From assembly GCF_003334765.1 (NCBI RefSeq), contig NZ_QOWT01000032.1: a stretch of 45,825 nucleotides of DNA; one strand, written 5' to 3'. Below are positions 1-40,210 of the stretch, one piece after another. Every line of letters begins with the position of its first letter. Positions within the stretch are counted from its first letter, which is position 1. Position numbers and translations under genes: made by a program. The stretch comes from Escherichia coli. Lineage in GTDB: Bacteria; Pseudomonadota; Gammaproteobacteria; Enterobacterales; Enterobacteriaceae. The notes below the pieces were generated by a model. It was not told the origin of the DNA, made no database searches, and was given only the letters and a program-made list of their open reading frames with translations.

Positions 1-71
1 GGTGATGACGGGATCGAACCGCCGACCCCCTCCTTGTAAGGGAGGTGCTCTCCCAGCTGAGCTAATCACCC
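1..71 (-). tRNA. valZ: tRNA-Val (anticodon UAC), truncated at its 3' end by the window edge
   Basis: Positions 1-71 are identical to positions 6-76 of the complete tRNA-Val copy at 300-375; position in operon matches valZ. Confidence 0.9.
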
Positions 72-220
72 GATACTGCGCTGGATACTACAAACTACTT
101 CCACCGAACCCACCGTCATTAGTGGTGGGTCGTGCAGGATGACTCGCTTCGCTCGCCCTACGGGCCGTTGCTGACGCAACGTTATCCTACACGCTTAACA
201 TCTGTCTTCGATGTTAAAAC
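72..220 (-). repeat. tRNA operon spacer module (149 nt) containing a 17-nt copy of the tRNA-Lys 3' terminus at 123-139
   Basis: 123-139 tggtgggtcgtgcagga equals the first 17 nt of the tRNA-Lys genes on this strand, then diverges; module is about 85-90% identical to 376-510 over its first ~70 nt. Confidence 0.6.
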
Positions 221-296
221 TGGTGGGTCGTGCAGGATTCGAACCTGCGACCAATTGATTAAAAGTCAACTGCTCTACCAACTGAGCTAACGACCC
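221..296 (-). tRNA. lysW: tRNA-Lys (anticodon UUU)
   Basis: 76-nt reverse complement gives a canonical tRNA-Lys with TTTTAAT anticodon loop and encoded CCA end. Confidence 0.95.
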
Positions 297-299
297 GAG

Positions 300-375
300 T
301 GGTGGGTGATGACGGGATCGAACCGCCGACCCCCTCCTTGTAAGGGAGGTGCTCTCCCAGCTGAGCTAATCACCC
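300..375 (-). tRNA. valT: tRNA-Val (anticodon UAC)
   Basis: 76-nt reverse complement GGGTGATTAGCTCAGCTGGGAGAGCACCTCCCTTACAAGGAGG... with encoded CCA; 3-nt gap to lysW. Confidence 0.95.
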
Positions 376-510
376 GATACTACGCTGGATACTACAACTA
401 ACTATGTTAGTGGTGGGTCGTGCAGGATGACTCGACTTCGTCTCGCCCTTCGGGCCGTTGCTCATGCAACGTTATCCTTCACGTTTTACTACCGCTTCCA
501 CCTTAGCGAT
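376..510 (-). repeat. tRNA operon spacer module (135 nt) containing a 17-nt copy of the tRNA-Lys 3' terminus at 411-427
   Basis: Same architecture as 72-220; two stems are conserved between the copies with different loops (gccc-tac/ttc-gggc and cgttgc-tgac/tcat-gcaacg). Confidence 0.6.
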
Positions 511-586
511 TGGTGGGTCGTGCAGGATTCGAACCTGCGACCAATTGATTAAAAGTCAACTGCTCTACCAACTGAGCTAACGACCC
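511..586 (-). tRNA. lysT: tRNA-Lys (anticodon UUU), first gene of the operon
   Basis: Identical to the 221-296 copy. Confidence 0.95.
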
Positions 587-750: not shown

Positions 751-1542
751 TTACATCGCGTTCAGACGTTTTTGTGCCTGTTTAGCGCCATCAGTACCAG
801 GGTATTTACTGATAACCTGCTGGTATACGGCTTTCGCTTTTGCGGTGTCACCTTTGTCCTGCATGATGACGCCGACTTTAAACATCGCATCTGCAGCCTT
901 TGGTGACTTCGGATAGTTTTTCACTACCGAAGCAAAATAGTACGCCGCATCATCTTTTTTACCCTTGTTGTAGTTTAACTGACCCAGCCAATAATTGGCG
1001 TTTGGCAGGTAAGTTGAATCAGGGTAATTTTTGATGAAATTCTGAAATGCCACCATTGCGTCATCCTGGCGGGATTTATCCTGCACCAGCGCAATAGCTG
1101 CATTGTAATCCGTGTTTGCATTACCGCTTTTCACCGGCGCGCCAGCATTCGCAGTACCAGCATCAGCTGTCGGCGTCGTTGATGCCGCCGCACCGCTTTG
1201 ATCGCCGCTGGTTGATTGCGCCGCTGCACCACCGCTGCTGAGGCTGTCGATCTGCAACAGGATCTGCTTTTGCCGCTCCACGACCTGATTCAGTTGATAC
1301 TGATTTTCCTGAATCTGACCACGCAGGGAATCAATATCGGATTGATTATCAGAAAGTTGTTGCTGGAGTTGGGTTAAAAGCTGGCTGTGAGCATTAGAAA
1401 TACGCTCAAGTTGAGTGACGCGGTCTTCGACCGAGCCTGAGCCGACACTACTGATTGGTGCCTGAGCAAAAGCGGCCCAGGGGGCCGCTATACCAACCAG
1501 TAACGACAGACTCAATAGTTGATGTCTGAAGTTACTGCTCAT
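751..1542 (-). CDS. cpoB: Cell division coordinator CpoB (YbgF), TPR-repeat periplasmic protein
   Basis: 263-aa ORF with signal peptide, coiled-coil region and C-terminal TPR repeats; last gene of the tol-pal cluster. Confidence 0.93.
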   Translation of the reverse strand: MSSNFRHQLLSLSLLVGIAAPWAAFAQAPISSVGSGSVEDRVTQLERISNAHSQLLTQLQQQLSDNQSDIDSLRGQIQENQYQLNQVVERQKQILLQIDSLSSGGAAAQSTSGDQSGAAASTTPTADAGTANAGAPVKSGNANTDYNAAIALVQDKSRQDDAMVAFQNFIKNYPDSTYLPNANYWLGQLNYNKGKKDDAAYYFASVVKNYPKSPKAADAMFKVGVIMQDKGDTAKAKAVYQQVISKYPGTDGAKQAQKRLNAM

Positions 1543-1551
1543 GCAATTCTC

Positions 1552-2097
<546 letters not shown>

Positions 2098-3532: not shown

Positions 3533-4798
3533 TTACGGTTTGAAGTCCAATGGCGCGTTTTTGAACACTTCATATACTGCCTGGCTTGGTGGTTTCGGGA
3601 TCTTCGCAAGTTTAGCTGCTGCCAACGCAGCCTGACAAAGTGCGGGATCGCCACCTTCAGGTTTGATATCCAGTAACATACCATCGGGTGCCAGTTTTAT
3701 GCGCAGCGTACAGGTTTTGCCTGCATAGGACGATGCGTCATAGAACTTACTTTCGATAGCAGATTTAATCTGCCCGGCATAGTTATTGATATCGGCCCCT
3801 GATGCGCCATTGTTTTTAGTATTACCACTCCCGGCAGGCGAAGCATTGTTCCCTTTCGCCCCTCCCCCCGTTTTCGGTGCATTCTTACCAGAGCTTAGCT
3901 CACCGAAAATATCATCTGCCTCTGCGGCCGCTTTTGCTGCAGCGGCTTTTTCAGCTGCAGCTTTTGCCGCTGCCGCTTTTTTGTCTGCGGCGGCTTTTTC
4001 TGCCGCTGCTTTCTTATCAGCTGCTGCCTTTTCAGCAGCCGCTTTTTCTGCTGCTTTTTTGTCGGCTGCAGCTTTCTCTGCTGCCGCTTTCTTATCAGCT
4101 GCAGCCTTTTCAGCAGCCGCTTTCTTCTCAGCTTCTGCTTTGGCTTTTTCAGCAGCTTCAGTTGCCGCTTTCTTTCTTGCTTCAGCTGCAGCTGCTTCTG
4201 CCGCTTCCGCTTTCTTCTTCAGTGCCGCAGCGGCTGCCTCGGCTTTTTTCTGCGCTTCGGCTGCGGCTTTGGCGGCTTCTGCTTCTGCTTTTTTCTTTGC
4301 GTCTGCAGCCGCTTTCTTCGCTGCTTCTTCCGCAGCTTTAGCATCTGCTTCGGCCTTCGCTTTAGCATCTGCCGCCGCTTTCGCTGCCGCCTCTTCAGCT
4401 TGCTTCTGCTTTAACTCGGCCTGTTTTGCGGCTTCTTCAGCCTGCTTTTTCTGCTCCTGAGCCGCTAACCGCTCTTTCTCAAGTTGCTTCAGGCGTTCCT
4501 GTTCAGCCGCTTGTTTCTCACGCAGTTCTTCAGCAGCCTGCTGTTCCTTCATCTTGCGCTGTTCATCAGAACGCTTCGCGCTTGATTCCTGGCTTTGCAT
4601 GCGTTTGTACTGCTCAACTACCGCACCTGAATCAACCATGACAGCGTCGATGGACGAACCACCGCCGCCTCCGGCTGAAGCTTCTATATTCTCATCGAAC
4701 GAACTCCAGATCAGCGCCGCAAATAAGATGACATGCAGCACTGCTGAAATAATTATCGCCCGCTTGAGCTTGTCGTTTTGTTCGGTTGCCTTTGACAC
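3533..4798 (-). CDS. tolA: Tol-Pal system protein TolA (N-terminal TM anchor, long Ala/Lys/Glu-rich helical domain II, C-terminal domain III)
   Basis: 421-aa ORF; characteristic low-complexity domain II. Confidence 0.95.
   Translation of the reverse strand: MSKATEQNDKLKRAIIISAVLHVILFAALIWSSFDENIEASAGGGGGSSIDAVMVDSGAVVEQYKRMQSQESSAKRSDEQRKMKEQQAAEELREKQAAEQERLKQLEKERLAAQEQKKQAEEAAKQAELKQKQAEEAAAKAAADAKAKAEADAKAAEEAAKKAAADAKKKAEAEAAKAAAEAQKKAEAAAAALKKKAEAAEAAAAEARKKAATEAAEKAKAEAEKKAAAEKAAADKKAAAEKAAADKKAAEKAAAEKAAADKKAAAEKAAADKKAAAAKAAAEKAAAAKAAAEADDIFGELSSGKNAPKTGGGAKGNNASPAGSGNTKNNGASGADINNYAGQIKSAIESKFYDASSYAGKTCTLRIKLAPDGMLLDIKPEGGDPALCQAALAAAKLAKIPKPPSQAVYEVFKNAPLDFKP
3929..4514 (-). repeat. 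Imperfect tandem coding repeats encoding TolA domain II (KAAAEKAAADKKAA-type units)
   Basis: Visible DNA periodicity (gctgc/gccgc-ttt units); creates a 224-aa mirror ORF on the plus strand. Confidence 0.8.
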
Positions 4799-18211: not shown

Positions 18212-18378
18212 GTAGGCCTGATAAGACACGTTAAACGTCACATCAGGCATCGCTTGTCGGATGCGGCGCTAGCGCCTTATCCGACCTACATTGGTGGTCC
18301 CGTAGGCCTGATAAGACGCGTCAGCGTCGCATCAGGCTTCAATTGCCGGAGAAGGCGATAATGCCTTATCCGGTCTAC
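18212..18378. repeat. BIME: four alternating REP elements in the sucB-sucC intergenic region
   Basis: gtaggcctgataagacacg...catcaggc; cggatgcggcgctagcgccttatccgacctaca; second Y and Z copies follow. Confidence 0.85.
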
Positions 18379-22613: not shown

Positions 22614-22731
22614 GCCTGATGCGCTGCGCTTATCAGGCCTACGGGTAATGACTTGTAGGCCGGATAAGGCGTTCACGCCGCATCCGGCACTGGTTGCCTG
22701 ATGCGACGCTTGCGCGTCTTATCAGGCCTAC
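22614..22731. repeat. BIME: three REP elements in the sdhB-sucA intergenic region
   Basis: gcctgatgcgctgcgcttatcaggcctac; gtaggccggataaggcgttcacgccgcatccggca; gcctgatgcgacgcttgcgcgtcttatcaggcctac. Confidence 0.85.
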
Positions 22732-40080: not shown

Positions 40081-40210
40081 GCCTGATGCGACGCTTGACG
40101 CGTCTTATCAGGCCTACGTATTTCCTGCAATTTATTGAATTTGCACAAATTTGTAGGCTGGATAAGGCGTTCACGCCGCATCCGGCATCTGGGCTCGATT
40201 GCCTGACGCG
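40081..40210. repeat. BIME (REP Y + REP Z + partial REP) between convergent dtpD and phr
   Basis: gcctgatgcgacgcttgacgcgtcttatcaggcctacg; gtaggctggataaggcgttcacgccgcatccggca. Confidence 0.85.

Follow-up and report, generated by a model that had tools for sequence, protein, structure and literature searches.

An in-frame tandem-repeat array in domain II of Escherichia coli TolA: extent, unit structure and natural length variation

Background

The tandem repeats of the E. coli tolA gene, and the differences in their number between strains, were published in 2012, and the finding that we report here is, as a whole, already known. Zhou, Michiels & Aertsen (2012, PLoS One 7:e47766, PMC3477136) described a tract of 13 imperfect repeats, each 15 or 18 bp long; among 234 isolates the number of units ranged from 8 to 16, and 66% had 13. 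In their clonal cultures, contractions occurred at a frequency of 6.9e-5; they fell to 15% in a recA mutant, rose 3.3-fold in a uvrD mutant and were without response to mutS, while spontaneous expansions were found in 0 of 150 colonies (PMC3477136). Deletions reaching upstream of the first unit (TR1) were likewise found; no contraction involved units TR12 and TR13, a plausible reason being a part of these units in YbgF/CpoB binding (PMC3477136). As for phenotypes, strains with more units tolerate deoxycholate better, the range covering four orders of magnitude; high salt at pH 5 favours 6 to 13 units, and phage fd plates on all non-13 variants at 28 to 43% of the wild-type level (PMC3477136).

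The tract lies in a protein of three domains. The N-terminal anchor carries a Ser-His-Leu-Ser motif, as defined in PMC10666116, that touches the TolQR motor, and domain III binds TolB, colicins and the phage protein g3p (PMC3477136, PMC10666116). Concerning the middle domain, Williams-Jones et al. (2023) showed that domain II must be structured if force is to be transmitted effectively from TolQR to the outer membrane: partial or full stabilisation of the outer membrane was obtained only with a structured domain, a disordered replacement gave none, and colicin E9 import persisted with the disordered replacement, about ten times slower (PMC10666116).

In this report, we analyzed a 45,825-nucleotide stretch of E. 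coli DNA (assembly GCF_003334765.1, contig NZ_QOWT01000032.1), hereafter the window, in which an initial annotation had flagged positions 3929-4514 as imperfect tandem coding repeats. A further 2012 article, by Zhou, Vanoirbeek, Aertsen & Michiels (Res Microbiol 163:316), reportedly concerns the same intragenic tandem-repeat region of E. coli tolA. Our aim was to delimit the array, to describe its natural variants among complete genomes, and to weigh how they arise.

Results

The tolA locus and the domains of its product

The coding sequence at 3533..4798 (-) has a GTG start and encodes 421 aa. A search of complete E. coli genomes showed 100% DNA identity to the K-12 allele, and the K-12-type genomes matched carry the annotation 'cell envelope integrity protein TolA'. 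The full-length product scores 554 bits with the curated NCBIfam TolA equivalog NF007065 (cut-off 213) and 308 bits with TIGR02794 (cut-off 59), while the TolA C-terminal domain PF06519 of Pfam is found at residues 325-419 (E = 2e-38). The gene order ybgC-tolQ-tolR-tolA-tolB-pal-cpoB, read from the ORFs of the window and the RefSeq annotation of the identical K-12-type locus, is present, with cydAB-cydX-ybgE-ybgC-tolQ-tolR upstream of tolA, and tolB-pal-cpoB followed by a Lys/Val tRNA cluster downstream. The equivalog score, the C-terminal domain and the tol-pal context together bear out the gene assignment made in the initial annotation.

Matches to RNA families were also recorded in the window. 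The tRNA-Lys(UUU)/tRNA-Val(UAC) cluster occupies 1-586 (-), with two RtT RNA matches between tRNAs, and one tRNA of the cluster is truncated by the window start. The CpoB/ybgF intercistronic RNA thermometer RF02782 of Rfam matches 1513-1651 (-), over the end of pal and the spacer that separates it from cpoB, with 142 bits (gathering score 51). Two matches to naRNA4 (RF02564, a nucleoid-associated, REP-derived RNA) lie at 22658-22728 (+) and 18215-18286 (-), with 88 and 62 bits, and one to the sRNA family ES036 (CssrF) at 40110-40152 (-), with 75 bits (gathering score 37.6).

Within the Tol-Pal system, TolA is the force transducer, anchored in the inner membrane. Domain I, the N-terminal membrane anchor, covers residues 1-47 (4658..4798, -), its boundary being taken from established knowledge and PMC10666116. 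The translation has a single N-terminal transmembrane anchor, in which S18, H22, L29 and S33, the Ser-His-Leu-Ser (SHLS) residues, lie within the hydrophobic stretch AIIISAVLHVILFAALIWSS. Domain II (residues about 48-310; 3869..4657, -) is assigned here on composition, its description as a long Ala/Lys/Glu-rich alpha-helical stalk that spans the periplasm, and its function, coming from the literature; the globular domain III (residues 325-419; 3542..3826, -) corresponds to the Pfam match. The flagged span encodes residues 95-290, whose composition is A95 K45 E30 Q10 D7 per 196 residues; it lies inside domain II, the central helical stalk of TolA.

The tandem array occupies a third of the flagged span

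The canonical tract was delimited by unit parse, Tandem Repeats Finder (TRF), repeat-family search and codon shuffles. Thirteen imperfect units, each of 15 or 18 nt, make it up at 3920..4126 (-), in the C-terminal third of the flagged region; they correspond to residues 225-293, for which the protein parse gives the consensus K1-2 A2-4 E/D/A. From TR1 (4109-4126) to TR13 (3920-3934), the units read KKAAAE, KAAAD, KKAAAE, KAAAD, KKAAE, KAAAE, KAAAD, KKAAAE, KAAAD, KKAAAA, KAAAE, KAAAA and KAAAE, and every one of the 13 has its own distinct DNA sequence. Strong TRF arrays are confined to 3921-4141, with periods of 15, 30, 33, 45 and 78 nt, the top one being 78 nt in 2.0 copies with 88% matches and a score of 255. 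The repeat-family search returned one family (D1) whose members start 15 or 18 nt apart across 3906-4174, and autocorrelation peaks stand at lags of 33, 48, 78 and 111 nt (z 3.8 to 5.1).

Three further segments of domain II adjoin or lie near the tract. Immediately upstream of it in the reading direction, residues 209-224 (4127..4174, -) form degenerate pre-units, KKAATEAAE-KA-KAEAE, which are deleted or replaced in some natural alleles. A small array of about two copies of a 24-nt, ADAKAKAE-type (8-aa) unit lies at 4321..4385 (-), with a TRF period of 24 and a score of 69 to 74. At the N-terminal end of the flagged span, residues 95-138 (4386..4514, -) form a Gln/Glu/Lys/Leu-rich helix of biased composition, where we found no tandem DNA repeat, TRF giving only a 19-nt trace.

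To separate repeats from biased composition, the best 60-nt off-diagonal match of each region was compared with those of 500 codon shuffles. Over the whole flagged span this match is 53/60 at lag 78, a value reached by 0/500 shuffles (mean 41.3, maximum 49), and the very same match, again reached by 0/500, is found in 3920-4141. Elsewhere self-similarity does not rise above composition: 43/60 at lag 24 in 4142-4387 is reached by 80/500 shuffles, and 35/60 at lag 42 in 4388-4516 by 45/500. The signal thus lies wholly within 3920-4141, and we rejected the notion that all of 3929-4514 is a tandem repeat. A head-to-tail array above composition, as in a VNTR, is found at 3920-4141 and not at 4142-4514, which is Ala/Lys/Glu/Gln-biased helix-coding sequence plus the small 24-nt array. 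The initial annotation, which placed tandem repeats across 3929-4514 and proposed a self-alignment to reveal them, was therefore right for 3920-4141 but not for the other two thirds or so of its span. By direct observation, the array fills about a third of it.

How much of the DNA similarity between units is owed to the peptide was gauged by redistributing synonymous codons while keeping the peptide, and 24 to 30 of 500 such controls reach the observed similarity, a marginal result. The DNA repeat is therefore largely imposed by the repeated peptide, and a similarity barely above the imposed level points to an array that is old and diverged. The units have diverged from one another at synonymous sites; we considered that they might be recent DNA duplications, and rejected this, the excess of identity at synonymous sites being only marginal. 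We also set aside as a structure an imperfect 27-nt inverted repeat (I1) inside the repeat region, 3936-3962 / 4184-4210, 74% complementary, which probably arises from palindromic GCAGCT/GCTGCA pairs of Ala codons.

Length variants among complete genomes

The tolA gene was found in all 5,426 complete E. coli genomes. Four genomes have no single match that spans 80% or more of the gene; in at least one of those four (H60), tolA is simply split by the start of the record. Two of the 5,430 tolA matches are on records labelled plasmid, and some genomes have two places.

Allele frequencies refer to an evenly spaced sample of 60 records from complete E. coli genomes, 59 of them with a full-length gene, rather than to a full census. 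Forty-one of these 59 (69%) have a tolA of 1266 nt, and the other 18 measure 1185, 1215, 1221, 1233, 1251, 1263, 1275, 1290, 1296, 1299 or 1311 nt. There are thus 12 lengths, each a multiple of 3. That copy number may vary between strains, as had been anticipated from the repeats, is borne out by these 18 alleles and agrees with the literature (PMC3477136), and the proposed comparison of tolA lengths across E. coli yields in-frame differences. Sampled alleles have 10 to 16 canonical units.

Unit maps were drawn for 15 variant alleles, all from E. coli, each variant unit being named after the nearest K-12 unit. All 15 are in frame, and nearly all their length change is a gain or loss of whole units; both the polymorphism and its whole-unit, in-frame nature are thus direct observations. 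The first 12 variant alleles translate without internal stops into proteins of 394 to 436 aa, and have indels only in domain II, domains I and III being constant in length. Across the 15 aligned variants, 4386-4514 has zero indels and constant length, and TR10-TR13 are structurally unchanged, with point differences only.

The simplest variants have one or a few neighbouring units lost or duplicated. TR4 is lost in L002 (-15 nt), TR1-2 in L003 (-33) and TR5-7 in L006 (-45); TR4-5 are duplicated in isolate F247 (NZ_OY754407.1, L001; +30) and TR1-2 in L008, L011 and L015 (+33). In O157:H7 Sakai (L007, -81), the degenerate pre-units are lost together with TR1-2, and two O157-type alleles combine this structure with internal duplications, of 30 nt in L012 (-51 in all) and of 30 + 60 nt in L009 (+9). 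L010/L016 (+45) and L004 (-3) are complex, TR3-TR6 copies being inserted or substituted upstream; in L004 the pre-units are replaced.

Two alleles changed outside the canonical tract. The 24-nt array at 4321-4385 is polymorphic in nature, GPEC606 (L005, +24) having one more copy of the ADAKAKAE unit at residues 143-150. ECE313 (L014, also +24) combines a gain of 10 aa at TR8-9 with a loss of two Ala at residues 202-203, the latter a 6-nt contraction of a GCN run located at about 4190-4195 of the window. GPEC606 and ECE313 are both 1290 nt long with different structures, a case of size homoplasy; sizing alone therefore under-counts alleles.

The 804 non-repeat positions that were compared never changed in length. 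Each with 0/804 flanking differences, the K-12-type background carries four tolA lengths and the O157-type background three. Identical flanks with several lengths imply, on this small sample, that unit number changes faster than point substitutions accumulate. Turnover faster than nearby point substitutions is here a direct observation on this small sample, and with whole-unit differences between strains it gives the locus the behaviour of a VNTR. The +33 duplication was found on backgrounds that differ at four positions, which suggests recurrence or recombination, the sample being too small to decide.

Antisense open reading frames

Two long ORFs run on the opposite strand: a 224-aa 'mirror' ORF of poly Ala/Phe/Ser composition at 3786..4460 (+) and, in a different frame, a 154-aa Leu/Pro/Gln-rich ORF at 3877..4341 (+). 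Antisense stops require TTA, CTA or TCA in the sense strand, of which the region has only five; GCN, AAR, GAR, GAY and CAR codons almost never create them, so that antisense frames stay open. In codon-shuffled versions the antisense open runs average 71 to 140 of some 199 codons; for the three frames, 9%, 25% and 2% of the shuffles reach the run that was observed. The slight excess in one frame is accounted for by the order of residues in the units, where Ala precedes Glu, Asp or Ala and seldom Lys, which leaves few junctions of GCT with a following A. The mirror ORF noticed in the initial annotation does exist, but the repeats proposed as its source are not needed, codon shuffles giving comparable open runs. 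Both antisense ORFs are artefacts of the Ala/Lys/Glu codon composition and not genes, and are not due to the repeat structure as such.

Discussion

Alternative explanations

Could the periodicity be nothing more than low-complexity Ala/Lys/Glu coding sequence, whose self-similarity comes from biased composition with no true repeat? This is indeed the case of 4142-4514, where codon shuffles reach the observed values in 80/500 and 45/500 trials, and even within the array about 5% of the synonymous reshuffles do so. For 3920-4141, however, the shuffle test (53 against a maximum of 49) and the unit-wise polymorphism refute it: 13 units can be parsed, autocorrelation peaks stand at 33, 48, 78 and 111 nt, and natural indels add or remove whole units. 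We thus regard composition as a very improbable explanation. The differences between genomes might in turn be sequencing or assembly artefacts, since assemblies are prone to error in repeats and some records were assembled from long reads alone. Yet the 15 variants are all in frame and nearly all change whole units, with ECE313 losing two Ala outside the array as well; the allele of the 436-aa protein WP_000030659.1 is shared by isolates from the USA and Tibet that are unrelated to each other; the array measures only about 250 nt, below the length of one read; and PCR sizing with Sanger sequencing of 234 isolates gave the same range (PMC3477136). The chance that these lengths are artefacts is negligible. 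The same can be said of the idea that the ORF at 3786-4460 (+) is a genuine overlapping antisense gene. It has 224 uninterrupted codons, a second ORF of 154 codons accompanies it, and one frame somewhat exceeds the length seen in most shuffles (reached by a fraction of 0.02), a single-frame excess that the unit order explains. Nevertheless, all three + strand frames over the region are open (678, 522 and 516 nt), none of the comparisons with codon shuffles reveals an ORF longer than the sense composition predicts, and their translation would give poly-Ala/Phe/Ser or Leu/Pro strings; in 60 of the 60 listed genomes, RefSeq annotates tolA alone here and no antisense gene. Stop-codon logic and codon shuffles led us to reject this gene, to which we attach next to no credence.

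A further alternative concerns the way units are gained and lost. Tandem repeats of 15 to 78 nt are classic substrates of replication slippage, and about 15% of contractions remain in a recA mutant (PMC3477136), so that copy number could be changed mainly by slippage rather than by recombination. The published genetics argue otherwise: besides the fall of contractions to 15% in recA, their frequency is 3.3-fold higher when the anti-recombinase UvrD is lacking and mutS is without effect (PMC3477136). These three effects designate recombination between units as the main route, and not simple slippage. The complex natural alleles L004, L009 and L010 also resemble unequal exchange or conversion between non-adjacent units. 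Slippage as the main process therefore seems improbable to us, and the initial description of the repeats as prone to slippage applies at most to the RecA-independent remainder, contraction being mainly RecA-dependent (PMC3477136).

Unit turnover and stalk length

We are highly confident in the explanation as a whole, that is, an in-frame array of 13 units with mostly recombinational unit turnover, yielding graded stalk lengths that modulate phenotypes. For the recombination mechanism, its rate and the phenotypes, the basis is the literature. Each unit of 15 or 18 nt, K(1-2)A(2-4)(E/D/A), corresponds to about 1.5 helical turns. Similarity between neighbouring units allows misaligned pairing, by which whole units are added or removed; published work shows that this is mainly unequal recombination that depends on RecA, next to a small RecA-independent part resembling slippage. 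Expanded alleles do occur naturally in our variant sample. The reading frame is always kept, and the outcome is a set of natural length alleles, of 394 to 436 aa in our sample, which lengthen or shorten the periplasm-spanning helix rather than inactivate the protein. Gain or loss of a unit, about 1.5 turns each time, would tune the reach of domain III, its presentation, or both.

The length of TolA sets how the TolQR motor, driven by the proton-motive force, reaches the outer membrane, and the published trade-off in unit number opposes bile-salt tolerance to tolerance of acid with high salt and to susceptibility to filamentous phages. Two polymorphic sites, the 24-nt mini-array at 4321-4385 and the Ala run at residues 202-203, lie outside the canonical tract. 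The variability of domain II may accordingly extend beyond the 13 units; on a broader reading, which is speculative and which we hold to be somewhat doubtful, a 'tunable' N-proximal module made of the pre-units and TR1-TR9 would stand beside a constrained CpoB-binding module, and lineage alleles such as those of the O157 group would possibly have been selected by bile, phage or colicins. The 24-nt duplication at residues 143-150, the two-Ala contraction at 202-203 and the size homoplasy are the sole details that are possibly new; if previously unreported, they refine the known picture and do not change it, and the repeat finding itself raises no new question. In practice, tolA length is a known strain marker, and length-only sizing misses alleles, as distinct structures can have equal length. 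For genome scanning, it is useful to recall that Ala/Lys/Glu-rich helices yield long spurious antisense ORFs.

Comparison with known systems

Contingency (phase-variable) loci based on simple sequence repeats resemble tolA in being repeat-mediated, hypermutable and heritable, with changes at about 1e-5 to 1e-4 per cell and a surface-related phenotype. However, such loci switch expression on or off, whereas in tolA protein length is tuned. A switch of frame or of promoter spacing was not found among the sampled alleles, whose lengths are multiples of 3 with units of 15 or 18 nt; on/off behaviour is missing because units are multiples of three and the fetched alleles have no internal stops.

Domain II of TonB, made of Glu-Pro / Lys-Pro dipeptide repeats, belongs to a homologous force transducer and is likewise a short-repeat middle domain that spans the periplasm, partly interchangeable with domain II of TolA (PMC10666116). 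Unlike the latter, it forms a polyproline II helix and not an alpha-helix, and the two have no sequence similarity.

Closer relatives are the tolA VNTRs used for strain typing in other genera, namely SENTR1/SE-10 of Salmonella Enteritidis, with a 45-bp unit in 7.8 copies (PMC2430564), and MLVA locus 53 of Klebsiella pneumoniae (PMC3948817). As in E. coli, these are polymorphic in-frame repeats in the same domain of the same gene, but unit length and sequence vary by genus.

Finally, the E. coli tolA repeat region of the 2012 papers is the same locus as the one described here, and nothing differs in kind. The 10 to 16 units of our sample fall inside the published range of 8 to 16, and the 13-unit allele represents 69% here against 66% there (PMC3477136). 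In both studies deletions extend into the degenerate upstream units, and in both the last units are invariant.
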